Source: Burkholderiales bacterium (GTDB taxonomy: Bacteria > Pseudomonadota > Gammaproteobacteria > Burkholderiales > JAEUOS01). From it: DNA of 32,000 nt. This document shows positions 7,904-31,905 of this stretch, piece after piece. Location: contig JANLTH010000107.1 of NCBI GenBank assembly GCA_031362865.1, positions 33,033-65,032 of the forward strand, read 5' to 3'. A model generated the notes under the pieces. It had not been told where the DNA came from. It saw only the letters and a list, made by a program, of their open reading frames with translations, and did no database searches. The stretch's first letter is position 1; each line of letters opens with the position of its first letter. Both the position numbers and the translations under genes were made by a program.

Positions 7904-8460
7904 TGGGGAGTCTTGGGTGGCACGGCAGGGGCGGGGATTGGTGTACTGAGGAGGGCTTGCGCCCGGGCGATGGCTTCGTCGATGTAGGCTTGGTAGAAAT
8001 CCGGAAGTTGCAGGCCTTCAATCGGTTCCACCAGCAGCTTGCCCGAACCATCGACAATCACGATCGTCGGGAAGACGCGCACGCCGTAGCGTTTGGAGAT
8101 GCTCAGCGGCGTGGTTTGCGAACCATCAGGCCGACGCACCAGAGGTAGTGTTCCCGTTGCCAACTCACGCAGCAATAAGGGTTTACCCACCCCCGGTTTT
8201 GACACCGAATTTTCTGCCGCTTCGCGCGCCATCGGGGCGAAAAACTCGCGCCGCGCCTTCTCGCAAAACGGGCAGTTTGGCTGGGTGACAAAAAGCACCA
8301 GCGGCACATTGTCGCGCGCGGCTGCGCGCAGGTCAGCCCCCAAATCGTGGGTAATCACCGGCATTGCCAGCGCCAACCCAGTCCACCAGCAAAACAGGGC
8401 TGTCGCTGTGAATGCGCCGCTTAAAATCTTGCTGCTAATCTTTAACCTTACTCGCCTCAT
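7900..8460 (-). CDS. Secreted thioredoxin-fold protein (CPFC motif)
   Basis: N-terminal signal peptide ([32 protein letters not shown]), a CxxC motif (NCPFCEKAR) and thioredoxin-like length. Its stop overlaps the ppc start as ATGA. Confidence 0.7.
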
Positions 8461-18021: not shown

Positions 18022-18097
18022 TGGTGCCCGTGGACGGAATCGAACCGCCGACCTCTCGCTTACGAAGCGACTGCTCTACCAACTGAGCTACACGGGC
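18022..18097 (-). tRNA. tRNA-Thr (anticodon CGT)
   Basis: The reverse complement folds as a cloverleaf. Acceptor stem is GCCCGTG/CACGGGC, D-arm AGCTCAGTTGGTAGAGC, anticodon loop TTCGTAA, T-arm GGCGGTTCGATTCCGTC, and the encoded 3' end is ACCA. Confidence 0.93.
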
Positions 18098-18210: not shown

Positions 18211-19023
18211 ATGATGTTTCGCTCTTGGCAGATTTGCGCCACTCGTTTTTTAATGGCATTCAGCGCAATTATGTTGGGCAGCTTGGCGCTGGCACAAGAC
18301 TTCGAGCGCGAAGCGCGCTGGCGTGCTGAAATTGAGCCGACCGTCGTCGTGGGCGACCCAGTGCTGCTCAAGCATTCCGTGCGAATGGCCGCGCCCGATT
18401 TTTTTGCGATTTACACCGAGGCCAAGGGGCCACCAAAGGCCGGGTTGGTGCTGCTGCACGGGGCAGGCGTACACCCGGATTTCGGCATGATTGGCGCGCT
18501 GCGGATCTCGCTCGCCGAGGTCGGCTACGCCACGCTTTCGGTACAAATGCCGGTGCAAGGCAAAGATGCCAAAGCGGAAGACTATCACCCCAAAGTATTC
18601 CCGAATGCGCTCGACCGGATCGCCCGCGCCGCGATCTACATGCAAGGCCGTGGGCATCGCAAACTGGTGTTGGTCAGCCACAGCATGGGCGCGTGGATGG
18701 CCAATGAATATCTGGATGCCAACCCGACCAATCTCTACGGCGCATGGATTTGCATCGGCATTACCGGTGGCTTCTCCAGCGATCTGGTAGGCAGCCTGCT
18801 CAAAGGCCGCGCGCTACCGGTTTTCGATGTTTACGGGCAGCGCGATTTTGAGGTGACCATGAGCGCCGCCGGGCGACGCTTTCGCGCCATCAAAGACACC
18901 GGCGGCTCGCGTCAAATTCAGGTGCCGGGGGCCGATCACTACTTCGCTGGCAAGGAGCGTGAACTATCAACGGTGCTTGCCACGTGGCTAGGCGAGATTG
19001 CACCCAGTCTGCGGGGGCAGTAA
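18211..19023 (+). CDS. Secreted alpha/beta-fold hydrolase
   Basis: Signal peptide (MMFRSWQICATRFLMAFSAIMLGSLALAQD), an HG oxyanion-type motif (LLHGAG) and a nucleophile elbow (VSHSMGA). Confidence 0.7.
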   Translation: MMFRSWQICATRFLMAFSAIMLGSLALAQDFEREARWRAEIEPTVVVGDPVLLKHSVRMAAPDFFAIYTEAKGPPKAGLVLLHGAGVHPDFGMIGALRISLAEVGYATLSVQMPVQGKDAKAEDYHPKVFPNALDRIARAAIYMQGRGHRKLVLVSHSMGAWMANEYLDANPTNLYGAWICIGITGGFSSDLVGSLLKGRALPVFDVYGQRDFEVTMSAAGRRFRAIKDTGGSRQIQVPGADHYFAGKERELSTVLATWLGEIAPSLRGQ

Positions 19024-19049: not shown

Positions 19050-19520
19050 CTATAATCTTGGGCTTCGCTTTCGCAGCGATAGACGACCGAACACCGGAGA
19101 GGTGGCAGAGTGGTCGAATGTACCTGACTCGAAATCAGGCGATGCGGTAACGTATCCGAGGGTTCGAATCCCTCCCTCTCCGCCAGTAGCCTTACGCTGG
19201 GAAGCGTAGCCCTCACTGGGCATCATCATCAAAAAGCTGGCCGCTAGTGCCAGTAGCACCGTCGCCGCCAACTGGCCTGCGTGGGCGGCGCGCTCTTTTG
19301 GGCTTTCGGTCTCGATCTTCCAAATCCATTCAAGCGTTTCGGCTGGTCCCATGTTGGCGATTCTGGCCAGCTTGATGACCTCTACCGGGTTAAGGGCTTT
19401 GATGCCCTTTTTCATTTCACTTATCCGCGCGGGCATGCAGCCAAGCGACTTAGCACATTGATAGTCAGTCGTCAATCCGTGATTTCGCATCTTGAGGATT
19501 AGTTCGTAGCTGCTATTCAT
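19050..19520 (-). CDS. Phage HTH (Cro/CI-type) regulator, putative repressor; the ORF tail runs through attL and the tRNA-Ser gene
   Basis: The N-terminal ~65 aa look like a helix-turn-helix (TDYQCAKSLGCMPARISEMKKGIKALNPVEVIKLARIA), followed by a hydrophobic segment (LAATVLLALAASFLMMM). AAGGA Shine-Dalgarno lies 8 nt before ATG 19520. Residues after ~111 are encoded by the att core and host DNA, so the true functional end is uncertain. Confidence 0.6.
   Translation of the reverse strand: MNSSYELILKMRNHGLTTDYQCAKSLGCMPARISEMKKGIKALNPVEVIKLARIANMGPAETLEWIWKIETESPKERAAHAGQLAATVLLALAASFLMMMPSEGYASQRKATGGEGGIRTLGYVTASPDFESGTFDHSATSPVFGRLSLRKRSPRL
19096..19185 (+). tRNA. tRNA-Ser (anticodon CGA, reads UCG), long variable arm
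   Basis: Acceptor stem GGAGAGG/CCTCTCC, anticodon stem-loop CCTGA-CTCGAAA-TCAGG, long variable arm, T-arm GAGGGTTCGAATCCCTC, 3' GCCA. A perfect TATAAT lies at 19051-19056, about 40 nt upstream. Confidence 0.95.
19162..19185 (+). repeat. attL core: 24-bp direct repeat (3' end of tRNA-Ser)
   Basis: GTTCGAATCCCTCCCTCTCCGCCA is identical to 27481-27504. Confidence 0.9.
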
Positions 19521-19588
19521 TTGAGAATTCCTTTTCGGTATCTGTATTATTCGTGCTTATCGTTTAGTAAGTATTCGATTGAGCCGCG
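19521..19588. promoter_or_regulatory. AT-rich divergent promoter/operator region of the prophage (regulator leftward, replication operon rightward)
   Basis: This 68-nt gap is the most AT-rich stretch of the window. A candidate rightward promoter is TTGAGA (19521-19526) - 18 nt - TATTAT (19545-19550). T(T)AT(T)CG recurs three times (about 19548, 19557 and 19572). Confidence 0.4.
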
Positions 19589-19852
19589 ATGCCGCACTAT
19601 ACCTCCAAACCCTCGCCAACGTCACGCCCGGTCTACGCGATCTGGGTTCGGTACGCTGACGGCAAGGAAACGCTCTACCGGGGCGCGCTAGGCCAGACCT
19701 GGAGCGAGCAATGCCCCGAGTCCATCAAGCTGATGACGGCCCTAGCCAAGGCCGCCAATGTGCATTCAGTGCAGTGGCACCTCCTCGACCCTCGCGATGC
19801 CATGAGCGCCAAGCTACCGCCGAATTCCATCATTCAAGGAGTAACCGCCTGA
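19589..19852 (+). CDS. Phage hypothetical protein (87 aa), first gene of the rightward operon
   Basis: ORF whose TGA overlaps the ATG of the Rep gene (TGATG at 19850-19854). No recognisable motif. Confidence 0.5.
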   Translation: MPHYTSKPSPTSRPVYAIWVRYADGKETLYRGALGQTWSEQCPESIKLMTALAKAANVHSVQWHLLDPRDAMSAKLPPNSIIQGVTA

Positions 19853-21003
19853 TGAACGCACACCAGCAAACCAATGCGCGCCGGTTTATCGAACAACAAG
19901 GCAACGGCGAAGGCTTGCGCGCGCAGCGCGCAGCCGTAGCGGTTGCCGAAGCCGCTGCCGAAGGCGCGCAGCGTCCCCCTGCTCTAACAGGGGGGGAAAG
20001 TACCCCAAATCAAGCACTTAGCGAAAGCTGGAAAGCTCAAAACGTCATCGTTGACTGGTGCCAAGGCACGTTCAAGCGAATCCGGCCGGGAACCAACCCG
20101 ATAGCCATGATTCACCTCTGGTTTTGTCATTTCCTCATGTGCGATGTTCACGGCGAAGAACGGGGGAACGGCATGTGGGGCTACGAATCCCTCACCCACT
20201 TCTACGCCCACGTAGACGGAACCAGGATACTCGTCGGCCTAGCCATGACCGGCGGCGCAAAGACCAACGGAACCCATCTCTTTCAACTAAACGGGCACGG
20301 TTGCGCACTTGTCAAAGACTGGAACGAAGTTCAAAGAGTGCTTGAAGAGCACGATGCCAGCCTAACCCGCGTCGATCTAGCCATCGACACACTCGAAGGC
20401 GCATTTCGGGTAGAAGAAGCCGCAGATTGGTACGTAGACGGCGGGTTTACCCAAGGCGGGCGAAGGCCCAAGTACAAACAAGAAGGTGATTGGTTCCTCA
20501 ACCAAGGCAGCGGTAAAACCTTCTACGTCGGCCTACGCGAACACGGCAAACAAGCCCGCGTCTACGAGAAAGGCAAACAACTCAAAGACCGCTGGTCAAT
20601 GTGGAACCGCTTCGAAGTCGAAATCCACAACACCAACCGCGATATTCCCGCCGAAATCCTCACCAAGCGAACCGAGTATTTCGCAGGCATGTACCCCATT
20701 TGCGCCACACTGGTAGACACCGAACATGCTGAACGGATAGCCACCTTAAAAAAAGAAGGGGAGATCAGCCTTGCGCACCTTATGCACTGGAACAAAGTCG
20801 CATACGGACGTTTGATCTTCCAGCTAACCAGCGCTGGTCACACACCTGAAAGCATCATCCAAGACACGCAACGCGAGGGCGTGCCTAGGAGATTGTCCAA
20901 AGCCTCGCTATTAAAAATCCGCCAAGGCGGCTCCCAGAGGAGTATCAAAGATGAACAACATGACCCAAACCAACCAGCGCATGACCGGCCTGGGATTCTT
21001 TGA
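19852..21003 (+). CDS. Rolling-circle replication initiation protein (Rep_trans/RstA-like, gII analogue)
   Basis: Motifs typical of the Rep_trans family: TRVDLAIDT, ARVYEKGKQL (candidate catalytic Tyr) and RFEVEIH. It occupies the first large gene position of the rightward operon. The ORF-track start at 19711 overlaps the previous ORF, so the coupled ATG 19852 is preferred. Confidence 0.75.
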   Translation: MNAHQQTNARRFIEQQGNGEGLRAQRAAVAVAEAAAEGAQRPPALTGGESTPNQALSESWKAQNVIVDWCQGTFKRIRPGTNPIAMIHLWFCHFLMCDVHGEERGNGMWGYESLTHFYAHVDGTRILVGLAMTGGAKTNGTHLFQLNGHGCALVKDWNEVQRVLEEHDASLTRVDLAIDTLEGAFRVEEAADWYVDGGFTQGGRRPKYKQEGDWFLNQGSGKTFYVGLREHGKQARVYEKGKQLKDRWSMWNRFEVEIHNTNRDIPAEILTKRTEYFAGMYPICATLVDTEHAERIATLKKEGEISLAHLMHWNKVAYGRLIFQLTSAGHTPESIIQDTQREGVPRRLSKASLLKIRQGGSQRSIKDEQHDPNQPAHDRPGIL

Positions 21004-21298
21004 AGGCGAAATTGACGGCAAAGACATCAAGTCCGGCTCGATTTTCGTTGAGTCAGCTCTTGATGAAACCAAGAGCAACGCCAAAGGAACGCGCAGTGTC
21101 GAGCACAAAGTGGATATGGACCTTATCAAAGCGCTCATGCACAACCCCATGCCCATGATGGTCGATCTTGAATTTGAACACCGCGTCACACGCGGCGCTA
21201 TGTCTTTCAGGTGCATCAACGTCCTTCCCAAAGGCGTACCGCAAACCACGACGGTAAAAAGCCCGTTAGCTGGCAAAGCCACCGCAGCAGGCTTCTAA
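20951..21298 (+). CDS. Phage protein in the gV position (putative ssDNA-binding protein), 115 aa
   Basis: Strong GAGGAG Shine-Dalgarno 8 nt upstream of ATG 20951. It overlaps the Rep 3' end by 53 nt. Size and position match inovirus gV; the function is positional inference only. Confidence 0.45.
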   Translation: MNNMTQTNQRMTGLGFFEGEIDGKDIKSGSIFVESALDETKSNAKGTRSVEHKVDMDLIKALMHNPMPMMVDLEFEHRVTRGAMSFRCINVLPKGVPQTTTVKSPLAGKATAAGF

Positions 21299-21316
21299 TC
21301 GTTCCGGCTACGACAC

Positions 21317-21796
21317 ATGCCAACCGTCTACGTATGCAGCAATGCTGCTGTACCTGCAAATCAGGTGCAAGGCAACGCTACGATGCGCACGGCTTGCCCA
21401 AACGGGCAATTCGTGAGCATCAGCTACGACGCTCTGGTAAACGCCGCCCCAGCGTACCAAACCACTCAATCGCAGCTAGCAACTGCGATTGCCACCAACA
21501 CCACGCAAGGCAATCAAATCACAGCCCTGCAAACCGTTAACAACCAGCAGGGCACGGCCATCACGCTGCTGCAATCATCCAATCAAAGCCAAGCCGCCAG
21601 CATCCAGCAACTGCAAACCCAAATCACGCAGCTACAGCAAAGCAACCCAATCGGTGGCGGAATCGTTCCACCGCTGAGCATTTCCGACGCTGGAACCGTT
21701 TTAAGCGCCATAGCGCTCATTTGGGCTGTCGCCTACGGTATCCGAATGATTATCGATTTCATCCGCAGCAGCGCAGCTATCGCACGCGAGAACTAA
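21317..21796 (+). CDS. Phage Q/T/N-rich coiled-coil protein with coat-protein-like C-terminal membrane anchor (159 aa)
   Basis: Heptad-like Q-rich region (ITALQTVNNQQGTAITLLQSSNQSQAASIQQLQTQITQLQQ) followed by DAGTVLSAIALIWAVAYGIRMIIDFIRSS. Lies directly upstream of the major coat gene. No clear Shine-Dalgarno. Confidence 0.5.
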   Translation: MPTVYVCSNAAVPANQVQGNATMRTACPNGQFVSISYDALVNAAPAYQTTQSQLATAIATNTTQGNQITALQTVNNQQGTAITLLQSSNQSQAASIQQLQTQITQLQQSNPIGGGIVPPLSISDAGTVLSAIALIWAVAYGIRMIIDFIRSSAAIAREN

Positions 21797-21858
21797 GAAC
21801 ACGGACAAGCCGCCAGTCCGTGTGGTTCACTACGGCGGCACAAACCTAGGAGCAAATC

Positions 21859-22086
21859 ATGAACAAAGTATTTCAAGCAGTCCGCAAAGGCGGCAAGTGG
21901 CTCGTAGTAGCCGCACCAGCCGCCGCACTGACCACCAACGCTGCTGCCCAAGCTGTTGACACGACTGCCGCTGTCGCTGCGATCACGTCGCAAAGCGGTG
22001 CGTTGACGGCTATCGGCACGGCAGTCGTTGCCATCTCCGTGGTCTACATGATTTTCAAGTGGATCAAGTCGATGATCAAAGGCTAA
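21859..22086 (+). CDS. Major coat protein (gVIII-like)
   Basis: 75 aa. Signal peptide ends AAAQA, and the mature ~44 aa have an acidic N-terminus (VDTT), a hydrophobic helix (ALTAIGTAVVAISVVYMIF) and a basic tail (KWIKSMIKG). TAGGAG Shine-Dalgarno upstream and a strong terminator downstream. Confidence 0.8.
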   Translation: MNKVFQAVRKGGKWLVVAAPAAALTTNAAAQAVDTTAAVAAITSQSGALTAIGTAVVAISVVYMIFKWIKSMIKG

Positions 22087-22108
22087 AAAACGCCGAAGTC
22101 AACGATTG

Positions 22109-22131
22109 AAAGCCGGGGCAACCCGGCTTTT
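22109..22131 (+). terminator. Rho-independent terminator after the major coat gene
   Basis: AAAGCCGGG-gcaa-CCCGGCTTT followed by T; 9-bp perfect stem with a tetraloop. Confidence 0.8.
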
Positions 22132-22150
22132 GTCCTCAAGGAGAAAAGAC

Positions 22151-22210
22151 ATGGAAGGCTGGTTTCTGCTTACAGCAGGCATTGGAGCACTTTGGATTAT
22201 TCTTCGATGA
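22151..22210 (+). CDS. 19-codon hydrophobic micro-ORF (MEGWFLLTAGIGALWIILR) coupled to the pIII-like gene
   Basis: AAGGAG (22138-22143) lies 7 nt before ATG 22151. Its TGA overlaps the ATG of the next gene (ATGA, 22207-22210). It is too short for the supplied ORF track. Confidence 0.5.
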   Translation: MEGWFLLTAGIGALWIILR

Positions 22211-23601
22211 TTAGGCTGTTATTGATCTTGCAAATCTTCGTATTGCTGACCTTGTCAGTCGGCGCGCCGAAGAACGCGGTAGCAGTGACTTACGGTTGTT
22301 CCGTAATAGGTGATCCTACTTCGTGTTCTTGTTCCGATCCCCACTATTCTTTAGCTCCGGGGACTCAGGTTTGCGTGCGGACATCCTGCCCGGCCGGTCG
22401 CCGCGTCCAGGGCGACAGCTGTATTGTGGTATGCCCTGATGGTTCCGATCTTCCAGCATCGGGCGTTTGTCTAGAAGCATGTCCACCTGCACAAACGCGA
22501 GTAAACGGCGTATGCCAATGTCAGGCCGGATTCACGTTCAACACCGTCGAGAATGCCTGCAAAAAAGATGAAACTTGCGCGTCGCGCGGCGACAAAGATC
22601 AAAGCATCACCTGGTACGGCCCGGTCACGGTTCCTCCGACGCTTCCAGGCCCTGGGCGCTTTTGCATCGATGGATGCCGCTATTCTTCTGGCGCGGGCAA
22701 CTGCGGTACATCCGAGTCAGGAAAAACGGCCTGCTGGGCGGGTAAGTTGTGGAACCAGCAGACCGCGTGCACGCCGGGTTCAGGCGATAGCAAAACTGAC
22801 CCACCGCCGAACGATCCAAGCTGCGGCGTTGGCATGTGCCCCGGCAATGTAAACGGTACTAACGTTTGCGTCCCGTGCAAAACGAGGACAACCGATGACG
22901 GCGGCAGTGGAGGCGGAACAGGCGCTGGAACAGGCAGCGGCAATGGCAATGGTGGAACGGTGGGGCCAACGACCACGGATAGTAACGGTGGCTCTGATGT
23001 CCCTGGCGGCAGCACGACTTCGACAAACACAAACACCACAACCGATAGCAGTACAGGGCAAACCACAACGACAACAACCAAGACCACGACGACGAACACC
23101 GATGGCGTGAAGACCACAAAAACGGATACAACAAACACCAGTAAAGATACACCAACATTCTGCAAGGAAAACCCCAACCACACGCTTTGCAAAACGACGA
23201 CAGTCACCGGTCAAGAGTGTTCGCAGACAAGCGTCTGCAACGGCGATGCCGTCCAATGCGCAATTCTGGCCAAAGAAAAAGACATGGCTTGCGCACTCGA
23301 AGCTAGCAAAGGCATGGCCGACGTAGCACTAACGATCGGCACGTCCAGCGACCCGCAAAAGGACACCCTTGCCAAAGGCGGCACTAGCAGAAAAGAGGTA
23401 GACCTGAAATCGTTCGCACCTGGACCAGCAACCGTAAGCGGAGCATGTCCTGCACCAAAAACGATCCCGCTCCCGTTCGGCGGATCGGTAACAGCCTCAT
23501 TCGAGCCATTGTGCAGCCTAGCCCCATATATCCGATTAATGCTGTTATTTTCAACAGCTATATGGTGTATCATTTTTATTAGCAGCAAACAAGGAAGCTA
23601 A
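22207..23601 (+). CDS. Minor coat / adsorption protein (pIII-like)
   Basis: Signal peptide MIRLLLILQIFVLLTLSVGAPKNAVA, Cys-rich N-terminal domains and a long Gly/Ser/Thr linker (GGSGGGTGAGTGSGNGNGG ... TTTTTTKTTTTN). A C-terminal hydrophobic anchor is present (LMLLFSTAIWCIIFI). The position after the coat gene fits pIII. The ORF-track TTG 22192 is less likely than ATG 22207. Confidence 0.75.
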   Translation: MIRLLLILQIFVLLTLSVGAPKNAVAVTYGCSVIGDPTSCSCSDPHYSLAPGTQVCVRTSCPAGRRVQGDSCIVVCPDGSDLPASGVCLEACPPAQTRVNGVCQCQAGFTFNTVENACKKDETCASRGDKDQSITWYGPVTVPPTLPGPGRFCIDGCRYSSGAGNCGTSESGKTACWAGKLWNQQTACTPGSGDSKTDPPPNDPSCGVGMCPGNVNGTNVCVPCKTRTTDDGGSGGGTGAGTGSGNGNGGTVGPTTTDSNGGSDVPGGSTTSTNTNTTTDSSTGQTTTTTTKTTTTNTDGVKTTKTDTTNTSKDTPTFCKENPNHTLCKTTTVTGQECSQTSVCNGDAVQCAILAKEKDMACALEASKGMADVALTIGTSSDPQKDTLAKGGTSRKEVDLKSFAPGPATVSGACPAPKTIPLPFGGSVTASFEPLCSLAPYIRLMLLFSTAIWCIIFISSKQGS

Positions 23602-23603
23602 CT

Positions 23604-23918
23604 ATGGCACTCCCCGCTGTCGGAATGGTCATTGCAGGCGCGCTGAGCTACGTAGCCACGCACTTAGCTTCAAAAGTTATTGTTCACCTAGGCTTAGGCG
23701 TGGTGACCTACGTTGGCATCGACATCCTGATTCAAAAGTTTCAAAATTTCGCGTTCGACCAGCTAAACGGCCTCCCTCAAGACCTGCTTCAGTTTACAAA
23801 GCTCCTAGGTTTTGACACCGCCATAGCCATGATCTTCAGCGCCATTACCGTTCGTTGGACGCTCGGCGGCCTTTTCTCGAGTTCGGTATCCCGTTGGTTC
23901 GTCCAAGGTCGTGAGTAA
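23604..23918 (+). CDS. Minor coat protein (pVI-like, DUF2523-type)
   Basis: 104-aa hydrophobic protein with three predicted membrane segments. It starts 3 nt after the pIII-like stop and lies upstream of the Zot/pI gene, as in other inoviruses. Confidence 0.65.
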   Translation: MALPAVGMVIAGALSYVATHLASKVIVHLGLGVVTYVGIDILIQKFQNFAFDQLNGLPQDLLQFTKLLGFDTAIAMIFSAITVRWTLGGLFSSSVSRWFVQGRE

Positions 23919-24163
23919 GGTACAGGCGCCAATTGCGGGTCTGGGGGATCATCCCCCAGCCGGCCTCCAGTCCGGGAACTGGAGGGGTTTGGGCACCGCC
24001 CAATCGGGGGTTTGGGGTAGAGACTACCCCAATGGGTTTGGGCAAAGTCCAAGGTCTTGCGTGAGGGATAGCAGCCCACTGGTGGAGACTACAGGCTCCA
24101 TGCTCGCACAAAAGCCCGGTTTCGCATGCGAAACACGCCCGTCTTTAACGCAGTAAAAGCCCA
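23919..24163 (+). other. Highly structured non-coding spacer (four hairpins, three GGGTTTGGG repeats) between the pVI-like and pI genes
   Basis: Hairpins at 23941-23959, 23964-23985 and 24012-24032, plus the palindrome GTTTCGCATGCGAAAC at 24119-24134. GGGTTTGGG occurs at 23985, 24008 and 24034. A flanking direct repeat GTCCAAGGTC lies at 23901-23910 and 24047-24056. Confidence 0.7.
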
Positions 24164-25228
24164 ATGATTCGCCTTATTACCGGGCTACCCGGAAACGGTA
24201 AAACCCTACGCGTAGTTTGGGAACTCTCGAAGATCGCCGAAAAAGGCGAACGCCCGATCTACGTCCACGGCATTCCGGATCTGGCCATCCCTGTCAATCA
24301 GCTAGAAGACCCAGAAAAATGGTATGAACACGAAGACCACGCGCTAATCGTCATCGACGAAGCGCAAAGTATCTTCAGGCCACGTGGTACCGGCAGCAAC
24401 GTACCGCCACATGTGGCCCGGCTAGAAAAACACCGTCACCAAGGCATCGACCTCTGGCTCATTACGCAGCATCCCATGCTGCTCGATACCAACGTCCGAC
24501 GACTAGTCGGCGAACACATTCACGTTCATCGACCTTTCGGATTTCAACGAGCAACCATTCTCAAATGGCAAGAAGTCAGCAACCCAAGTAGTAAATCGCA
24601 CATCGCGCAAGCGCAAAAAGAACAATGGTCATTCCCGCAAGATGCTTACAAGCTCTACAAAAGCGCCCAAGTCCACACGCATAAAGCGCAAATTCCGTGG
24701 AAGATGGTCATCCTCGCCATCGGCACGCTAGTTGCGGCAGTAGTCGCCATGGGCTACGCCTACTACCACTTCAGCAAGATGGCCAACGCAGGCAAGCCAT
24801 TGACCGAAGCCACAAAGGCCCAACCCAGTGCCCTCGGTGGCGGCCTCGCAGTCGTTGGAAATAGCGACAAAAAAAAGAGTCCTCAAGAAGATCTCAGAGA
24901 TTGGCTAGACGCCAGGAAGCCAAGAATCGAAGGATTGCCCGAGACTGCGCCGCAATACGACGACGTAATGAAACCGCAAGTCGCCCCGCAGCCCTCGGCT
25001 TGCATCAAAATGCGTGACGAATGCCGGTGCTACACCCACCAAGCCACATTGATCGACATGTCCAGAAATCTCTGCGAGCAAATCGTCAAGAAAGGTTATT
25101 TCGACGCCACGCTAGCTAGGGAAAATCGCAGCTCCACATCTGTGCAGGGGCAAAGCAACCGCGCGCCCACGCAACAAGTGCCAACCGTTACACTAGCGCT
25201 ACCTGATTTCAAGGAAACTAAACCATGA
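24164..25228 (+). CDS. Assembly ATPase pI (zonular occludens toxin, Zot family)
   Basis: N-terminal MIRLITGLPGNGKT (Walker A), ALIVIDEAQ (Walker B) and a central TM helix (MVILAIGTLVAAVVAMGYAYY) followed by a periplasmic tail. This is the classic pI/Zot architecture. Confidence 0.9.
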   Translation: MIRLITGLPGNGKTLRVVWELSKIAEKGERPIYVHGIPDLAIPVNQLEDPEKWYEHEDHALIVIDEAQSIFRPRGTGSNVPPHVARLEKHRHQGIDLWLITQHPMLLDTNVRRLVGEHIHVHRPFGFQRATILKWQEVSNPSSKSHIAQAQKEQWSFPQDAYKLYKSAQVHTHKAQIPWKMVILAIGTLVAAVVAMGYAYYHFSKMANAGKPLTEATKAQPSALGGGLAVVGNSDKKKSPQEDLRDWLDARKPRIEGLPETAPQYDDVMKPQVAPQPSACIKMRDECRCYTHQATLIDMSRNLCEQIVKKGYFDATLARENRSSTSVQGQSNRAPTQQVPTVTLALPDFKETKP

Positions 25229-26046
25229 AAATGGTCATCAGCATCATCCTCGCCTTCACCGTCGTCTTTGGTGCTTTGTTTCTCGCTGACCGCAGCCTAA
25301 AAGGCAATTTTGACGCATCCAAGTCGCGCATCCAAGAAAAAGTCCAAGGCACAATCAAATTCGGCTTCAGCAAGCCAACTGAGCCACCAGCTGCGGTAGC
25401 GCAGCCACGACCTGGTGGAACTCCACCAGGTCGTGGCGATCGCGTCGTCGAGCTGCGCCCGCAGTATGTCCCAGTAGCAGCGGATTCCTTGGTCGCGAAG
25501 ATGATCGACGAAGATCGAAAGACCCGCCCTATTGGTCAACTTCGCCTAACCCTGTTAGAACCCGTAAACGAGCCACCACTTCACGCAAATTCCCGCGCTG
25601 CACCCGAGAAGGTGGGCGACCTCTACAAATGCGCTGTAGGCGGTAAAACGACCTACCAGCAAATTCCTTGCGCCGAAGGCGAAGGAAACGCATTGAAAGT
25701 TACGGATTCGAAGATTGGCAGAGCCGTAACACCGGTCGAGCTACTCCGCGCCACCATGGAAGAAAAAGGCTGGACAAACGGACGTCGCTACGAAAATGGG
25801 CGGCTGGTAGCCGAAGTCAAAGATGGTGGCATCGTCGTTTCACCGCACCAGCTCGCCAATGCTCAAGGTGACCCGCTACAACAAGCAAAATTCCGTTGTC
25901 GTGTTATCGAGGAAGAACTGGAACGCATCAAAGCGCTACAGCGGCAACCATTGTCCGGCTACGAACATGATCGTATCCGGCGGATCAAGGAAGAGTTGGA
26001 TGCAGAGCATTTCAGCCGGAAGTGCAATATCATCAAGAACCAATAA
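25225..26046 (+). CDS. Phage membrane-anchored periplasmic protein with DUF4124-like motif (273 aa)
   Basis: ATGA overlap with pI. N-terminal TM (MVISIILAFTVVFGALFL), a Pro-rich linker, LYKCAVGGKTTYQQIPCAEG (DUF4124-like) and a charged coiled-coil C-terminus. Confidence 0.6.
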   Translation: MKMVISIILAFTVVFGALFLADRSLKGNFDASKSRIQEKVQGTIKFGFSKPTEPPAAVAQPRPGGTPPGRGDRVVELRPQYVPVAADSLVAKMIDEDRKTRPIGQLRLTLLEPVNEPPLHANSRAAPEKVGDLYKCAVGGKTTYQQIPCAEGEGNALKVTDSKIGRAVTPVELLRATMEEKGWTNGRRYENGRLVAEVKDGGIVVSPHQLANAQGDPLQQAKFRCRVIEEELERIKALQRQPLSGYEHDRIRRIKEELDAEHFSRKCNIIKNQ

Positions 26047-26047
26047 A

Positions 26048-26069
26048 AAACCCGCCGGCTGGCGGGTTT
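26048..26069. terminator. Bidirectional intrinsic terminator
   Basis: AAACCCGCC-ggct-GGCGGGTTT with an A-run on one side and a T-run on the other, between convergent genes ending at 26046 (+) and 26089 (-). Confidence 0.8.
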
Positions 26070-26088
26070 CTCAGTGAGTTATCGAGCT

Positions 26089-26346
26089 CTAAACGTGCTG
26101 CGCCGCCTCAACGCGCATCACAGCGTCTGCCAGCGTATCCACCTTCGCAATCAACAGACTGCGCATCCGCGCATCCATCGCCATATCGCGGCGAATTGCA
26201 GCCAAGTCGGCGCGGATTGAAGCATTGTCTTCACGCAAGCTAGAAATTTGCTCATGCACCGCGTTCACGCTTTGGCGTTGACTGGCTTGCTCCGCCTGAA
26301 TCTGTTTCAGAATCTGCAACACAAGGTTTTCGGTTTCGGCAGTCAT
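26089..26346 (-). CDS. Phage coiled-coil protein (85 aa), unknown function
   Basis: AAGGAG lies 9 nt upstream of ATG 26346, which is preferred over the ORF-track start 26370. The protein is a heptad-rich helix (LVLQILKQIQAEQASQRQSVNAVHEQISSLREDNASIRADLAAIRRDM). Confidence 0.6.
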   Translation of the reverse strand: MTAETENLVLQILKQIQAEQASQRQSVNAVHEQISSLREDNASIRADLAAIRRDMAMDARMRSLLIAKVDTLADAVMRVEAAQHV

Positions 26347-26370
26347 GTTGTTCGTCTCCTTCTGATGCAC

Positions 26371-26829
26371 CGAATTGTAGGCTTTTCGCTGGCCAGCCGC
26401 AGCGCTTGCTACATTTGCACGCGCTTACCAGCATTGAATCTCTACAGACCAGCAGCCTCAAAAAGCTCCCCAAGTTCCCCCGCGCCATATCGCACAGGTC
26501 GAAGACCTGCCCCGAAGGGGTGAGCCGGTAGGAGCCGGGTCGGTAGACCTTCGACGGTTGTATCGTCGAACTCCGAAGCCCGGCGAATGCATGGCGCGGG
26601 CTGAGTACCTTCATAAGCCACGAATCGCTTTTCGCTCAAGTCACTACGCATTTCCCACGGCCTGCCGAAGGACAGGCCGCACCAAGGACTGCAACTGGTG
26701 ATATCGTCGGGAGTGCCGAAGGTGTGCCGAGTGAAGATGCGGACAGGGACACGCTTTATCGTCCCTGCCTCATCTTCACGTAGGACACACCGTAGGACAC
26801 GACCAGAGATACCACCAGTTGCAGCCGGG
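26371..26829. other. Large phage intergenic region with clustered hairpins and iterated motifs (candidate origin / packaging signal)
   Basis: No credible ORF. GAA-triloop hairpins lie at 26495-26509, 26510-26520 and 26659-26678, and another hairpin at 26550-26570. An 18-bp imperfect hairpin spans 26731-26779. Tandem CGTAGGACAC x2 lies at 26779-26800, and TGCCGA recurs four times. Confidence 0.6.
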
Positions 26830-27405
26830 TTACTCGAACAGGTCGCCCTTTGCCTTCGCTCTTTTCAAAGCTCGCTTCACTGAAGCAATGTGAATTCCGT
26901 ATCGCCGGGCTAATTCTGATTTGTTGAGCGAACCAGAGACAAACAGGGTGACCAGCTCCAGCTCCTGCTCTTCCGTGATGGCTGGCAATCGACCGAACGC
27001 CACGCCACGCAATCGAGCTGCGCCCATTCCTGCAACCGTTCGCTCCACGATCATTGACCGCTCAAACTCTGCGAACGCACCGAGAATCTGGAACACCACA
27101 CGCCCCGCAGCCGATTTCGTATCCAGATGCTCGGTAAGCGACTCCAGACGTGCACCAGTTTCGTGAATGCGCTCCGTCACGCGCAGCAAGTCCGCCAGCG
27201 AGCGGGCTACACGATCGAGCTTGTAAACGACTACCGTGTCACCCGGTTTGATCTTGGCCAGCAAAGCAATCAGCTCTGGCCTTTTCAGCGACTTACCGCT
27301 TTTTTGCTCCTGAAAAAGAAAATCGACGCCGGATTTCTCCAAAGCGTCGATCTGCAAACCGGTGTTTTGTTCGATGGTGCTTACGCGAGCATAGCCGTAG
27401 CGCAT
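26830..27405 (-). CDS. Small serine recombinase (resolvase/invertase family), putative prophage integrase
   Basis: MRYGYARVSTIEQNTGLQIDAL carries the catalytic Ser context, and VYKLDRVARSLADL is also present. A C-terminal HTH is present (LNKSELARRYGIHIASVKRALKR). 191 aa from ATG 27405, whose 5' end lies 75 nt from the attR core. Confidence 0.9.
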   Translation of the reverse strand: MRYGYARVSTIEQNTGLQIDALEKSGVDFLFQEQKSGKSLKRPELIALLAKIKPGDTVVVYKLDRVARSLADLLRVTERIHETGARLESLTEHLDTKSAAGRVVFQILGAFAEFERSMIVERTVAGMGAARLRGVAFGRLPAITEEQELELVTLFVSGSLNKSELARRYGIHIASVKRALKRAKAKGDLFE

Positions 27406-27480
27406 GATGGTTTCCTGTAAAGGAGTTGAAGGGACTCCTTCAGTAACCGAAACCATGCAAAGCGGCGCGGATCACGAAGA

Positions 27481-27504
27481 GTTCGAATCCCTCCCTCTCC
27501 GCCA
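27481..27504 (+). repeat. attR core: 24-bp direct repeat
   Basis: GTTCGAATCCCTCCCTCTCCGCCA is identical to 19162-19185. Similarity breaks down immediately upstream of the repeat. Confidence 0.9.
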
Positions 27505-27545
27505 AATACCTTTGTACAGGCGCGGGACTCGCAAAACTCTTGCGT

Positions 27546-27555
27546 CCCCCCCCCC
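27546..27555 (+). repeat. Homopolymeric C10 tract
   Basis: Read directly (tgcgt cccccccccc ttgcc). It lies 41 nt downstream of attR in host DNA, just after an imperfect hairpin GGGAC(tc)GCAA-aactc-TTGCGTCCC. Confidence 0.85.
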
Positions 27556-27788
27556 TTGCCAACTGCCTGCGGCCCCCTGCGCGCCCTGACATCACCTCCG
27601 CGCGCGGCTTCCACCGCGACCGCTTCGTGTCGCCGGTTCCTTTTCAATTGCGCTTCGTCCTCCGGCCGCCAGCCAACTCGCCGATTCCGGGCGCTTCAAC
27701 TTCGACATGTTGCCGAAAAGGCATTGCGAGCTCGGATTGCAAGATAATCTGGGAGATCGCAGCTCACAACTTATCGAATTTCAATCTC

Positions 27789-28565
27789 ATGAGTGTCAAA
27801 CAACTCTTCGACCTTTCCAATCGGGTCGCCATCATTACCGGTGGGTCGCGCGGCTTGGGGCTGCAAATGGCGGAAGCCTTGGGTGAATTGGGTGCCAAGC
27901 TGGTCTTGAGCGCGCGCAAAGCCAACGAGCTTGAAGAGGCTCATGCCCAGCTGACCAAGCTTGGTTACGACGTGATGACCATCCCGGCCGACATTGGCAA
28001 GGTCGAGGCGATTCAACCTTTGGTCGATGCGGTGATGGCGCGCCATGGGCGCATTGATATTCTGGTCAACAACGCTGGTGCTACCTGGGGCGCGAATGCT
28101 GAGGATCATTCGCTCGACGCGTGGAATAAGCTGATCGCGGTCAACCTTACCGGGGCCTTTTTGCTCTCTCAAGCAGTGGGGCGCGCCTCGATGATTCCGA
28201 ATCGTTACGGGCGCATCATCAATATCGCCTCGGTCGCAGGGCTGGGCGCTTCGCCGCCGCAAATGGGTGGCACGCTGGCCTACAACACCACCAAAGGCGG
28301 CTTGGTCAATTTCACTCGCCAATTGGCTGCCGAGTGGGGCCGCTACAACATCACGGTGAATGCGATTTGCCCCGGCTTTTTCCCTTCGCGCATGACCCGC
28401 TCGACGCTCGCTGCGCATGAGAAGTTTTTTGTCGATCTCACGCCGATGGGCAAATTGGGTGGCAACGAAGATTTGAAGGGCGCAGTGGCGTTGTTCGCGT
28501 CGAACGCGGGCGGTCACATCACCGGTCAAACGCTGGCGGTCGATGGCGGGGCGATTGTCGTATGA
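27789..28565 (+). CDS. Short-chain dehydrogenase/reductase (gluconate 5-dehydrogenase-like SDR)
   Basis: TGGSRGLG cofactor motif, NNAG and catalytic YNTTK. ATG 27789 (MSVKQLFDL...) is preferred over the upstream-extended ORF-track start 27540. Confidence 0.88.
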   Translation: MSVKQLFDLSNRVAIITGGSRGLGLQMAEALGELGAKLVLSARKANELEEAHAQLTKLGYDVMTIPADIGKVEAIQPLVDAVMARHGRIDILVNNAGATWGANAEDHSLDAWNKLIAVNLTGAFLLSQAVGRASMIPNRYGRIINIASVAGLGASPPQMGGTLAYNTTKGGLVNFTRQLAAEWGRYNITVNAICPGFFPSRMTRSTLAAHEKFFVDLTPMGKLGGNEDLKGAVALFASNAGGHITGQTLAVDGGAIVV

Positions 28566-29041
28566 GCCAAACCATTGCACCCCAGGTCATCATGCCCAAC
28601 GGCCGGCCGATGGGTGCGCGCGCGATTGGCTCACTCAAAGATGTGCCGTTTCTCACGCACCTGGGGGTCAAGGTGATGGAGATGGAGGAGGGCCGTTCAC
28701 TGCTCGTGCTCGACCCCAAGCCTGAACATTACAACTCGTGGGCGTCAGTGCATGGCGGTGTCATCGCGACGCTGCTCGACGTGTGCATGGCGGTGGCGGG
28801 GCGCTCTTACGACCCGGCCAATTTGTCCGGGATTACCGTTGACATGAGCATTCAGTACATCCTGCCAGGCAAGGGGCCGCAATTGGCGCGCGGCAACGTA
28901 GTCGCGCGCTCCGCCACTATTTGGCGCTGCGAAGGTGAAGTGCGCAACGCCGATGGCACTCTGGTCGCCAAGTCGATCGGCTCGTTCAAATTTAAAGATT
29001 TTTCCGCCCGGAAAGACAAACAACCTGTTGGAGATTCGTAG
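28562..29041 (+). CDS. PaaI-family hotdog-fold thioesterase
   Basis: SVHGGVIATLLDVCMAVA motif, ~150-aa size, and an ATGA overlap with the preceding SDR gene. Confidence 0.8.
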   Translation: MSQTIAPQVIMPNGRPMGARAIGSLKDVPFLTHLGVKVMEMEEGRSLLVLDPKPEHYNSWASVHGGVIATLLDVCMAVAGRSYDPANLSGITVDMSIQYILPGKGPQLARGNVVARSATIWRCEGEVRNADGTLVAKSIGSFKFKDFSARKDKQPVGDS

Positions 29042-30031
29042 ATGAATAAGCAATTTGTTTTAGCCAAACGCCCGCAAGGCCAAGTTACGCCTGACTGTTT
29101 CCGCTTGCAGGAAAGTGCCATTCCCGCACCGGCTGATGGCCAAGTGCTGGTCAAGCACCATTACATGTCGCTCGACCCCTACATGCGCGGGCGCATGGAT
29201 GATTCGAAGTCGTATGCGGTTTCGCAGGCTATCGATGCGGTGATGGGTGCTGGCACGGTGGGCGAAGTGGTCGAATCCAAGCTGGACGGTTTCAAGCCTG
29301 GCGACCATGTTGTCGGCATGGGTGGCTGGCAGCAATACTCGCTCGCCAAAGGCGGCGAAATGCGCAAGATCGACACGCGCCAGGTGCCGATGTCTGCTTA
29401 TCTGGGGGTGGTTGGCATGCCCGGAGTTACCGCGTGGGTCGGCACGAATACGATTTGCAATCCGAAGCCGGGCGAAACCTTGGTTGTGAGCGCAGCTTCG
29501 GGCGCGGTGGGCAGTGCGGTAGGTCAGCTTGCCAAGGCGCAGGGCGTGCGTGCGGTTGGTATCGCCGGTGGCGCTGCCAAGTGTGCGTATGTGAAAGACG
29601 AATTGGGCTTTGATGACTGCATCGACTACAAAACCGTAGGCTGGCAAGACGCACTCAAAGCCGCTACGCCCAAAGGAGTTGACTGTGTGTTTGAAAACGT
29701 CGGCGGCGAGATTTTCGACTTCTTGCTCTCACGCATGAACGCCTTTGGGCGCATCGCGGTCTGCGGCCTGATTTCAGGCTACAACGGCGAACCGTATGGC
29801 ATGAAAAACATTCGCTCGCTCTTGGTTAACCGCCTTACCGTGCAAGGCTTCATTGTTTCTGAGCGCATGGAACTGTGGCCCAAGGCGCTGGGCGAGCTTG
29901 GCATGGGCGTAGCGACTGGCAAGCTCAAGTACCGCGAAACGGTGGCGCCGGGGCTGGAAGCCGCGCCGCAAGCCTTTATTGGCCTGCTTAAGGGTGAGAA
30001 CTTTGGCAAGCAGGTGGTGAAGTTGATTTAG
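29042..30031 (+). CDS. NADP-dependent oxidoreductase, MDR superfamily (alkenal/enone reductase, YncB/CurA-like)
   Basis: AASGAVGSAVGQLAK nucleotide-binding motif and family-typical length. It starts directly after the stop of the thioesterase gene. Confidence 0.85.
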   Translation: MNKQFVLAKRPQGQVTPDCFRLQESAIPAPADGQVLVKHHYMSLDPYMRGRMDDSKSYAVSQAIDAVMGAGTVGEVVESKLDGFKPGDHVVGMGGWQQYSLAKGGEMRKIDTRQVPMSAYLGVVGMPGVTAWVGTNTICNPKPGETLVVSAASGAVGSAVGQLAKAQGVRAVGIAGGAAKCAYVKDELGFDDCIDYKTVGWQDALKAATPKGVDCVFENVGGEIFDFLLSRMNAFGRIAVCGLISGYNGEPYGMKNIRSLLVNRLTVQGFIVSERMELWPKALGELGMGVATGKLKYRETVAPGLEAAPQAFIGLLKGENFGKQVVKLI

Positions 30032-30052
30032 TTCTTCAAAAGGAGAGTCGCC

Positions 30053-30892
30053 ATGAATGCCCCCATGAACCCAGCTGAAATGCACGCCGTGTCAGCGCCC
30101 GCACCCTCGGTGGAAGAGAACCGTGCCCTGTTGCCGCAGCCGCCCACGTTTGCCACCGTCGCTGAAGAACGCCTGCACCGCAAGCAGCGGCTCGCTGGCG
30201 CGTTTCGCGTCTTCTCGCGCTTCGGGCTGGACGAAGGGGCGGCCGGGCATATCACCGTGCGCGACCCTGAATTTCCCGACAGCTTTTGGCTCAACCCGTT
30301 CGGGGTGCATTTCAGCCAAGTCAAGGTTTCCAACCTGATCCGCGTTTCTCACCACGGCGAGGTTCTTGACGGCAATCATCCGCTCAATCGCGCAGCATTC
30401 GCGATTCACTCGCGGGTACACCAAGCGCGGCCCGATGCGGTAGCGGCGGCGCACACGCACGGGGTCTATGGGCGTGCTTTTTCAGCGCTGGGCAAGCCGC
30501 TGGCGATGATTAATCAAGACGTGTGCGCCTTCTACAACGACCACGCGGTTTATGACGATTTTGGCGGTGTAGTTTGGGAGCTGGAAGAAGGCGAGCGCAT
30601 CGCCAAGGCAATCGGCCAGAACAAGGCCGCGATTTTGCAAAACCACGGCCTCATTACACTGGGCAAAAGTAGTGTGGACGAAGCGGCCTGGTTCTATATT
30701 TCAATGGAGCGCTGCTGCCAAGTGCAAATGTTGGCCGAATCAGCGTTGCGCCCTGGCGAAAGCCTGAAAATCGTGCCCGAGGCCGCCGCCGCGCAGTCAC
30801 ATGCCATCGTCGGCGCGCCATTCTCAGGCTGGTTCCAGTTTCAATTGCTCTACCAGCGCCAGCTTAAAGAGAATCCAGATTTTCTCGATTAG
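30053..30892 (+). CDS. Class II aldolase/adducin-domain protein
   Basis: GHITVRDP and a metal-binding histidine context (AAAHTHGVYG, LQNHGLITLG). AAGGAGAG Shine-Dalgarno upstream. Confidence 0.85.
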   Translation: MNAPMNPAEMHAVSAPAPSVEENRALLPQPPTFATVAEERLHRKQRLAGAFRVFSRFGLDEGAAGHITVRDPEFPDSFWLNPFGVHFSQVKVSNLIRVSHHGEVLDGNHPLNRAAFAIHSRVHQARPDAVAAAHTHGVYGRAFSALGKPLAMINQDVCAFYNDHAVYDDFGGVVWELEEGERIAKAIGQNKAAILQNHGLITLGKSSVDEAAWFYISMERCCQVQMLAESALRPGESLKIVPEAAAAQSHAIVGAPFSGWFQFQLLYQRQLKENPDFLD

Positions 30893-31002
30893 CGAAGCTG
30901 CGCAGCTCCGCGGTGAGGGGTGAGGAGTACGGCGTGAGGTTCGCGCCGCTCTGAAATGCCCCTGACTTCACCTCACCCCTAACTCCTTACTCTTCACTAA
31001 AC

Positions 31003-31905
31003 ATGCAGATATTCAAAGACAAAATTGCCGTCATCACCGGTGCCGGCTCCGGCTTTGGCCTCGAAGTAGCGCGCATTGGTGCCAAGCGCGGCATGAAGCT
31101 GGTGCTGGCCGACGTGCAACAAGATGCGCTGGATCGTGCTCGCACTGAACTGGAAGCCGCTGGTGCGCAGGTTCTAGCGATCAAGGTCGATGTTTCCAAG
31201 CCTGAAGAAGTGCAAGCCATGGCGGATGCCGCCGTCAAGCGCTTTGGCGTGCCCAATTTTGTGTTCAACAATGCTGGGGTTGGCGCGGGCGGCTTTATTT
31301 GGGAACACGAGTTGGCCGACTGGCAGTGGGTGATGGGTGTCAATCTGTGGGGTGTGGTCTACGGTATCAAAGCCTTTACTCAGCTGATGCTGGATGCCGC
31401 TGCCAAAGACCCAACTTTTGAGGCGCATATCGTCAATACCGCTTCGATGGCAGGCCTGCTCACACCACCCAATATGGGCGTGTACAACGTGACCAAGCAC
31501 GCGGTTGTGGCAATGACCGAGACGCTCTACCAAGACTTAAGCTTGGTGACGACCCAAGTCAACTGCTCGGTGCTGTGCCCGTATTTTGTGCCCACCGGCA
31601 TTCACGCCTCGCACCGCAATCGCCCGAGTGATTTGAAGCACGAAGCGCCGCCCACCAAGTCGCAAAAAGTCGCGCAGGCCATGAGCGAAAAGTCGGTCAA
31701 CTCGGGCAAAGTCAGCGCCACCGATGTTGCCGGATTCATTTTTAAAGCGATGGAAGAAAAGCGCTTCTACATCTACTCGCACCCGCACGCACTGGGCAAT
31801 GTGGAACGCCGGATGACGGACATCGTGAAAGGCAACAACCCGGGTGATCCGTTTGAAGAAACGCCGCACGTGCGCGAGAAATTGGTTGCAGCCTTGAAGT
31901 CCTAG
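31003..31905 (+). CDS. Short-chain dehydrogenase/reductase (SDR)
   Basis: TGAGSGFG, NNAG and catalytic YNVTK; 300 aa. Confidence 0.88.
   Translation: MQIFKDKIAVITGAGSGFGLEVARIGAKRGMKLVLADVQQDALDRARTELEAAGAQVLAIKVDVSKPEEVQAMADAAVKRFGVPNFVFNNAGVGAGGFIWEHELADWQWVMGVNLWGVVYGIKAFTQLMLDAAAKDPTFEAHIVNTASMAGLLTPPNMGVYNVTKHAVVAMTETLYQDLSLVTTQVNCSVLCPYFVPTGIHASHRNRPSDLKHEAPPTKSQKVAQAMSEKSVNSGKVSATDVAGFIFKAMEEKRFYIYSHPHALGNVERRMTDIVKGNNPGDPFEETPHVREKLVAALKS

Follow-up and report, generated by a model that had tools for sequence, protein, structure and literature searches.

An apparently intact inovirus prophage at the 3′ end of a tRNA-Ser gene, with a phiRSM-type serine recombinase as its probable integrator

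The DNA analyzed here (the window) is a stretch of 32,000 nucleotides (nt) from a Burkholderiales bacterium, taken from contig JANLTH010000107.1 of assembly GCA_031362865.1 (positions 33,033 to 65,032, forward strand). From the letters of this stretch alone, it had been predicted that a complete prophage of about 8.3 kb, resembling the filamentous phages (inoviruses), is inserted at the 3′ end of a tRNA-Ser(CGA) gene. We followed up this original prediction with profile searches, homology searches, and an analysis of the attachment (att) repeats, and all three lines of evidence supported it. The boundaries were further supported by an uncultured sister prophage, L034, which we found on an 11-kb contig of a JGI metagenome (Ga0654415_0004522).

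The host tRNA-Ser gene (anticodon CGA, reading UCG) was located by ARAGORN at positions 19096 to 19185 on the plus strand, where Rfam scored it as a tRNA with 59.7 bits. Its 3′-terminal 24 nt, GTTCGAATCCCTCCCTCTCCGCCA, form the attL core (19162 to 19185, plus strand) and recur without a mismatch as a phage-borne copy of the tRNA 3′ end, the attR core (27481 to 27504, plus strand). As predicted, these two exact copies lie 8,319 bp apart, and there are no others in the window. None of 100 shuffles gave a match to the 24-mer, even with 3 mismatches permitted, and the core was the sole direct repeat of at least 15 nt that brackets the region. A boundary alignment showed that identity stops at both edges of the core, in line with the abrupt end of similarity that had been described. 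The element thus has a unit of 8,319 bp, with 8,295 bp between the repeats (19186 to 27480). The attR junction was found again, in identical form, in a contig from an independent read set (L003). The interior had been called visibly richer in AT than its surroundings, which is true but modest; the G+C content is 54.8% at 19186 to 27480, compared to 61.2% in the left flank and 58.4% in the right flank. The plus strand of the element is also strongly skewed, with A exceeding T and C exceeding G. Apart from the tRNA, Rfam gave no match inside the element. The tRNA-Ser(CGA) gene is the integration target and is still intact after integration. For the excised circle, we predict an attP junction (27480 / core / 19186) of …GGATCACGAAGA / GTTCGAATCCCTCCCTCTCCGCCA / GTAGCCTTACGC…, and for the empty site an attB of …TATCCGAGG / core / AATACCTTTGT….

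At the right end of the element, 75 bp from attR, is the gene for a small serine recombinase of the resolvase/invertase type (191 amino acids [aa]; 26830 to 27405, minus strand; PF00239, E = 6.4e-39). The protein aligned over its full length with the Gin invertase (4m6f, E = 2.8e-36), including the motif of the catalytic serine (YARVST compared to YVRVST) and the C-terminal helix-turn-helix (HTH). It is 55 to 58% identical to ORF14 of phiRSM1 and to the resolvase/Int proteins of RSM3 and Rs551. Its best phage matches overall were RSM1, RSM3, RSMSuper, Rs551, and “phage 1 NP-2014,” at 54 to 58% identity. By analogy with these phages, the recombinase is presumed to be the integrase and excisionase of the element. 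Experiments have demonstrated that Int of phiRSM, a small serine recombinase, performs both integration and excision at the 3′ end of tRNA-Ser(UCG) (Askora et al. 2011, reviewed in PMC3816273 and PMC4471427). The 13-nt core common to attP and attB of phiRSM, TGGCGGAGAGGGT, is the reverse complement of the tRNA-Ser(UCG) 3′ end, and the same Int/attP unit is also present in prophages of R. pickettii and B. pseudomallei (PMC3816273, PMC4471427). Since an anticodon of CGA reads UCG, the target in the window is the same tRNA species as that of phiRSM, and the 24-nt core holds 12 of the 13 nt of the phiRSM core (CCCTCTCCGCCA). When the circle is reconstructed, resolvase, attP, and repressor follow each other in the order seen in RSM1 and Rs551.

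On the other side of attP, beside attL, the minus strand encodes an HTH transcriptional regulator that is a candidate for the repressor (19186 to 19520; phrog_638 “transcriptional regulator,” E = 3e-12; phrog_4441, HTH). The HTH is located at the N terminus, and the protein also has a hydrophobic segment. A tblastn search of the phage collection with this regulator gave no match. The open reading frame (ORF) stays open across the att core and continues within tRNA DNA as far as position 19050, so that the read-through translation is 156 aa long in the integrated state and 152 aa long in the reconstructed circle. The regulator ORF of L034 (555 to 914) reads through its att site as well, in another frame (119 against 154 aa). 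This arrangement recalls phiRSS0, in which attP lies inside the repressor ORF (ORF13) and integration alters the C terminus of the repressor (PMC3816273).

Between the regulator and the rightward operon is a divergent control region (19521 to 19588) with a sigma-70-like promoter, TTGAGA-18-TATTAT, which agreed with the consensus at 10 of 12 positions in a consensus scan and is to be read as a pattern match. The operon opens with an 87-aa ORF, orf87 (19589 to 19852, plus strand), followed by a rolling-circle replication initiator of the Rep_trans/RstA-like type (383 aa; 19852 to 21003, plus strand; PF02486, E = 7.7e-27; phrog_453, E = 1.4e-74). The stop codon of orf87 and the start codon of Rep overlap (TGATG), an arrangement suggesting that the two are translationally coupled, as had been proposed; in PE226, the analogous small ORF8 likewise abuts the Rep gene. 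Rep is 34% identical to the PE226 replicase and 49% identical to its L034 counterpart, with further matches in CTXphi-type phages. We refined the gene starts from the sequence for Rep (19852), for the recombinase (27405; MRYGYARVST), and for the pIII-like protein described below (22207).

Downstream of Rep, in the position of the gV gene of filamentous phages, is a 115-aa protein that may bind single-stranded DNA (ssDNA) (20951 to 21298, plus strand). It belongs to phrog_4994, a family that carries no function label. The family profile matched ORF1 of PE226 (hhalign, 99.7%, E = 1e-25) but gave no match by hhalign to the p12J ORF1 and NP-2014 “SSB” (ssDNA-binding) proteins. An AlphaFold2 (AF2) model built from a 2-sequence alignment had a predicted local distance difference test (pLDDT) score of 45 and was unusable. 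The gV label is therefore putative and draws on position, size, and homology to PE226 ORF1. Position and size are those of a gV protein, but a tie to a known ssDNA-binding protein did not emerge.

The virion and assembly genes follow on the plus strand. The first, orf159 (159 aa; 21317 to 21796), is a candidate minor coat protein whose middle part resembles a coiled coil and whose C terminus carries a membrane helix. In PHROGs, its C-terminal part gave a “tail protein” match (phrog_4644, E = 4.5e-10), and its last 29 aa are 52% identical to PE226 ORF3, which is annotated as a “putative minor coat protein.” Next is the precursor of the major coat protein (75 aa; 21859 to 22086; PF05356 Phage_Coat_B, E = 2.5e-10; 55% identity to L034). 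It has a signal peptide ending in AQA and a mature part with successive acidic, hydrophobic, and basic stretches. On the 3′ side of the coat gene, as predicted, we read from the sequence a hairpin like that of an intrinsic terminator (22111 to 22136, plus strand), consisting of AGCCGGG-GCAA-CCCGGCT and then TTTGTCCT. L034 has an equivalent hairpin and T-run behind its own coat gene. Directly after the hairpin is a hydrophobic mini-ORF of 19 aa, MEGWFLLTAGIGALWIILR (22151 to 22210, plus strand), with an AAGGAG Shine-Dalgarno sequence and a stop codon that overlaps the ATG of the pIII-like gene. A counterpart is found at the same place in L034 (3924 to 3995; MVLEYGGWFVALALIGSWWILFR), so the mini-ORF is conserved at 19 to 23 aa, a size below the reach of ordinary gene callers. 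It may encode a small virion or assembly protein.

The pIII-like adsorption/minor coat protein (22207 to 23601, plus strand) matched phrog_4352 (E = 3.8e-38) and the TspB C-terminal domain (NCBIfam NF041109, E = 5.8e-10); TspB is the adsorption-protein analogue in neisserial filamentous phages. Its signal peptide is followed by N-terminal domains rich in Cys, a linker rich in G, S, and T, and an anchor at the C terminus. Identity is 24 to 25% to p12J and to PE226 ORF5, and the C-terminal third is 45% identical to L034. The pVI-like minor coat protein (104 aa; 23604 to 23918, plus strand) matched DUF2523 (PF10734, E = 2e-18) and phrog_1242 (E = 2.7e-22). The pI/Zot assembly ATPase (354 aa; 24164 to 25228, plus strand; PF05707, E = 6.8e-20; phrog_197, E = 3.8e-83) carries the Walker A motif GLPGNGKT, the Walker B motif VIDEAQ, and a central transmembrane (TM) helix, all visible in the translation. 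It is 36% identical to its homologues in PE226 and p12J and 59% identical to that in L034. In the protein collection, an identical Zot protein was present on only one contig (82.6 kb, NCBI), and the next relative was at 59%.

Taken together, the profiles that had been proposed as checks (Zot, Rep_trans, resolvase, and DUF2523) all found their proteins. The motifs that had been read in the Rep candidate (VDLAID, RVYEKGK, and RFEVEIH) are present in the translations, as are the two Walker motifs. Profiles and homology thus bore out, independently, most elements of the original prediction: the att repeats in tRNA-Ser, the Rep_trans initiator and its coupled small ORF, the major coat protein and its terminator, the pIII-like and pVI-like proteins, the Zot/pI ATPase, and the resolvase.

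From repressor to resolvase, the genes of the sister prophage L034 follow the order seen in the window, and Rep, the gV-position protein, the coat protein, the C terminus of pIII, pVI, Zot, and the resolvase are 45 to 60% identical in amino acid sequence to those in the window. A direct repeat of 25 nt, GGTTCAAATCCCTCCGTCTCCGCCA, flanks this prophage in two perfect copies and corresponds to the 3′ end of its own host's tRNA-Ser(GCT). This repeat gives independent support to both the boundaries and the targeting of tRNA-Ser genes. It also shows that the core follows the sequence of the tRNA in the host. The two elements share an inverted attP (see below), a long hairpin beside the resolvase gene, the mini-ORF behind the coat terminator, and the read-through of the repressor ORF. 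They differ in the tRNA-Ser isoacceptor used, with the 25-nt core differing at 2 positions, and in their repressors, which have no detectable sequence homology. L034 also lacks an insert found between the pVI and pI genes of the window element and has two ORFs at the place of orf159.

Closer relatives of the recombinase were found on two ENA contigs, L035 and L036, at 98% identity. Positions 1 to 120 of L035 correspond to window positions 27405 to 27533 and show the same host site, with 1 single-nucleotide difference in 29 nt of flank and a 26-nt tRNA match, and a phage-side junction that is different and shorter. This suggests that L035 and the window hold two diverged phage variants at one site in near-identical hosts, arising by independent integrations or by recombination at the junction. 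A relative at 70% (L037 and L038) has the same arrangement. Four further members of the recombinase family, at 55 to 62% identity, were sampled from Variovorax, Cupriavidus, and metagenome contigs: L039, L040 (Variovorax sp. W1I1), L121 (Cupriavidus metallidurans), and L122. Each of them lies at the end of an inovirus prophage, immediately next to a tRNA-Ser gene, and the Rep types of the prophages vary. L121 (CP026544.1, 9724 to 19509) and L122 (1649 to 12352) are prophages in the RSM orientation next to a tRNA-Ser(cga) gene behind serS. Pilin-like genes lie on either side of L121, whose far end carries another, truncated resolvase ORF (103 aa); L122 has a secretin of its own.

While the phiRSM1, phiRSM3, and Rs551 phages (Habenivirus) resemble the window element in having a serine recombinase of about 190 aa beside attP and an HTH repressor placed oppositely across attP (phiRSM ORF15 and Rs551 ORF14 occupy the position of our HTH regulator), the orientation of attP is opposite. 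The tRNA-sense core runs antiparallel to int in the window, L034, L035, and L037 and parallel to it in RSM1, Rs551, L039, L040, L121, and L122. In the antiparallel arrangement, the repressor gene abuts the tRNA and int abuts attR; in the parallel one, int abuts the tRNA. Accordingly, the repressor and not int is next to the tRNA gene in the window prophage. The core identity also differs, being 13 nt in the phiRSM phages and 24 nt here. In a midpoint-rooted neighbor-joining tree, the four “inverted” recombinases form one clade, although the tree covers a small sample of 11 sequences and carries no support values. The inversion of attP is a mark of a sub-lineage, without an evident mechanistic consequence for a serine recombinase.

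Beyond Int, the only similarity to RSM1 and Rs551 was about 30% identity over the first 120 aa of Zot. The phiRSM phages also have another Rep type, and their Rep gene lies downstream of Zot, as opposed to upstream of the structural genes in the window. The backbone is closer to PE226 (Parhipatevirus) and p12J (Porrectionivirus), with which the element shares the module order of small ORF and Rep_trans, gV-position protein, minor coats, coat, pIII, pVI, and Zot. Identities to these two phages are 34% for Rep, 24 to 25% for pIII, 27 to 29% for pVI, and 36% for Zot, and similarity is detectable at the C terminus of orf159. The records of PE226 and p12J have no recombinase, att site, or repressor annotated, and the window element goes beyond both phages in its integration module, its long hairpin region, and two further ORFs (orf273 and orf93). 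With CTXphi, phiRSS0, and XacF1, it shares the RstA-like Rep_trans initiator, Zot/pI, and a temperate lifestyle; those phages, however, use the host recombinases XerC and XerD (XerCD) at dif, as opposed to a serine recombinase of their own and a tRNA target. The element is thus a mosaic, as judged from sequence comparison, of a PE226-like Rep_trans backbone and a phiRSM-type integration module.

By megablast, there was no nucleotide-level match to GenBank phages. The element falls outside Habenivirus, with Int and the N terminus of Zot as the only matches, and outside Parhipatevirus and Porrectionivirus, whose proteins are 24 to 36% identical. It does have the features of an inovirus, namely, a pI/Zot ATPase, a 75-aa coat protein, and Rep_trans, pIII-like, and pVI-like genes within a unit of 8,319 bp (compared to an expected 5 to 15 kb of mostly co-oriented genes). 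By sequence distance, this is a new temperate inovirus at the genus level, from an uncultured betaproteobacterium that probably belongs to the Burkholderiales. The suggestion that the phage is undescribed therefore holds for the phage but not for its strategy, as integration at tRNA-Ser(UCG) by a small serine recombinase has already been described for phiRSM (PMC3816273, PMC4471427). Our understanding of how filamentous phages integrate is unchanged by this element. It does show the Int/attP cassette of phiRSM to be a portable unit: in the window it is joined to a PE226/CTX-like Rep_trans backbone and in other elements to different Rep types, it can retarget among tRNA-Ser isoacceptors, and it can sit in either orientation. 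The comparison also provides functions for about 12 genes that an annotation would otherwise call hypothetical and flags the conserved mini-ORF and a candidate packaging hairpin.

This hairpin is long and imperfect (55 bp; 26682 to 26829, plus strand) and lies within the 459-nt intergenic region between orf93 and the recombinase gene (26371 to 26829), directly downstream of the latter. Folded as ssDNA, the region had a z score of −8.6 compared to shuffles, a signal dominated by the hairpin. L034 has a nonhomologous long hairpin at the same position (about 8223 to 8398; z = −7.1). In L035 and L036, the hairpin differs at 2 of 150 nt, neither of which is paired, while the intergenic region as a whole is 95% identical. 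The packaging signal of Ff phages is a hairpin, and by analogy we consider the structure at 26682 to 26829 to be the best candidate for a packaging signal or a complementary-strand (minus-strand) origin.

A second noncoding feature is the insert of 245 nt between the pVI and pI genes (23919 to 24163), which contains 5 short GC hairpins and, at 23985, 24008, and 24034, 3 copies of the repeat GGGTTTGGG ( 0.21 copies would be expected across the whole window). Its DNA fold had a z score of −3.2. In every relative examined (L034, L039, L040, PE226, and p12J), the pVI and pI genes are directly adjacent, and the insert had no Rfam match and no copy elsewhere. An 81-aa ORF in this gap (23911 to 24156) was rejected as a gene, being low in complexity and rich in Gly and Pro and lying in a gap that is absent from all relatives examined. 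The insert is a candidate origin or regulatory region. A bolder proposal would make the tail swap of the regulator (tRNA derived at 156 aa, phage derived at 152 aa) a built-in sensor of the integrated versus the episomal state and, separately, make the insert a relocated replication origin or regulatory element; we regard this proposal as improbable.

The best overall explanation is that the element is a temperate inovirus prophage at the 3′ end of tRNA-Ser, with the phiRSM-type serine recombinase as its probable integrator. We give this explanation a probability of roughly 0.9. The element is apparently intact and complete, with the hallmark inovirus genes at full length, in canonical order, and with sizes near those of their L034 counterparts. 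Under this model, the 191-aa recombinase would join attP, where the phage duplicates the 3′-terminal 24 nt of the tRNA, to the identical attB, so that the tRNA is kept and two direct repeats result. Excision would be performed by the same protein, by analogy with phiRSM Int. The divergently transcribed HTH regulator beside attL probably represses the rightward operon. After excision or derepression, Rep_trans would start rolling-circle replication, and the 115-aa protein would probably coat the ssDNA. Assembly at the membrane would then involve the 75-aa coat protein, orf159, the mini-ORF product, and the pIII-like and pVI-like proteins, together with the pI/Zot ATPase, and the hairpin at 26682 to 26829 may serve in packaging, as a signal or as the complementary-strand origin.

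Several observations weigh against this model. Neither the empty attB nor the circular attP junction that had been proposed as checks was found in the collections searched. Exact-pattern scans gave nothing for the core plus right flank in JGI metagenomes or for the attP pattern in IMG/VR. In GTDB genomes, 26 loci anchored on the hydrolase of the left flank had at most 55% identity and no tRNA nearby. In metagenomes, 80 loci anchored on the short-chain dehydrogenase/reductase (SDR) of the right flank reached 75% identity at best and had synteny only to the right of the SDR gene, again with no tRNA. An exact lookup of the SDR protein gave a single contig, L003, which is identical to the window at the attR junction. 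The flanking proteins were only 50 to 75% identical to proteins of Burkholderiales or betaproteobacterial metagenome-assembled genomes and metagenome contigs. We attribute the failure to find either junction to the collections, which hold no host genome that is close enough. The analogy to phiRSM is also not exact, because attP is inverted with respect to the int and repressor genes. For the 115-aa protein, no link to known ssDNA-binding proteins was obtained with phmmer and a 40-sequence profile against the PDB or with Pfam on all 40 members. The 245-nt insert is unusual and might affect the expression of pI. Finally, the element has no secretin gene and no identified pVII or pIX homologues.

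Some of these points would fit a sub-case of the prophage explanation, in which the element is a defective or domesticated remnant that is unable to excise, replicate, or assemble. Such a remnant would account for the failure to find a free circle or an empty site in any collection searched, for an exact Zot protein on only one contig of the protein collection, for an insert that the relatives examined do not have, and for the missing secretin. However, the att repeats are perfect, all 11 recognizable genes are full length compared to their homologues and free of frameshifts, and the catalytic-serine and Walker motifs are intact. The hairpin is more conserved than its surroundings, and hosts that are nearly identical carry two diverged variants of the phage at one site. 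As for the secretin, the gene is absent from many active inoviruses, including CTXphi and the phiRSS and phiRSM phages; since the element carries none, export would pass through a host secretin. We therefore consider a remnant to be rather unlikely. The perfect repeats, full-length genes, intact catalytic motifs, and conserved hairpin lead us to infer that the prophage may be active at present.

Integration by host XerC/XerD at a dif-like site, as in CTXphi, phiRSS0, and XacF1, would make the resolvase an unrelated passenger, such as an invertase. The backbone is indeed nearest to PE226/RSS/CTX-type (Rep_trans) phages, several of which use XerCD. However, the boundaries are a repeat of the tRNA-Ser 3′ end and not dif, and no dif-like site is present in the window. 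In addition, the recombinase gene next to attR encodes a member of the phiRSM Int family, which is repeatedly found at junctions of tRNA-Ser and prophage. We rejected this alternative, to which we assign very little probability. Zot and Rep_trans domains occur outside phages too, but a nonviral genomic island or integrative plasmid carrying zot-like and rep genes is just as implausible and was rejected, because 8.3 kb hold a full structural gene set (Phage_Coat_B, DUF2523/pVI, the pIII-like protein with its C-terminal TspB domain, and pI/Zot), arranged as in inoviruses and syntenic with PE226 and p12J.

Among the remaining genes, the start of orf273 (273 aa; 25225 to 26046, plus strand) overlaps the Zot stop codon. 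The protein has an N-terminal TM helix, and an ORF with 29% identity is kept at the same position in L034; an AF2 single-sequence model had a pLDDT of 50. Facing it is orf93 (93 aa; 26089 to 26370, minus strand), a coiled-coil protein that is 36% identical to an L034 ORF at the same place and on the same strand and that otherwise had weak coiled-coil matches only. For orf273, orf93, and orf87, there was no credible match in Pfam, PHROG, NCBIfam, PADLOC, or PDB searches. Between the convergent orf273 and orf93 is a hairpin resembling a bidirectional terminator (26044 to 26073; inverted repeat I6), with a 13-bp stem and a T-run.

Outside the element, a tRNA-Thr(cgt) gene (18022 to 18097, minus strand) lies 1 kb to the left of the tRNA-Ser gene, and a gene for a DUF3530/alpha-beta hydrolase (18211 to 19023) lies between the two. 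On the right, the nearest metagenomic relatives (L041 to L043) have no tRNA within 10 kb. Their synteny with the window runs rightward from the SDR gene (27789 to 31900) and stops just to the right of the right end of the prophage (27505 to 27788). Since synteny stops beside the prophage, the junction of tRNA-Ser and prophage coincides with a synteny breakpoint.

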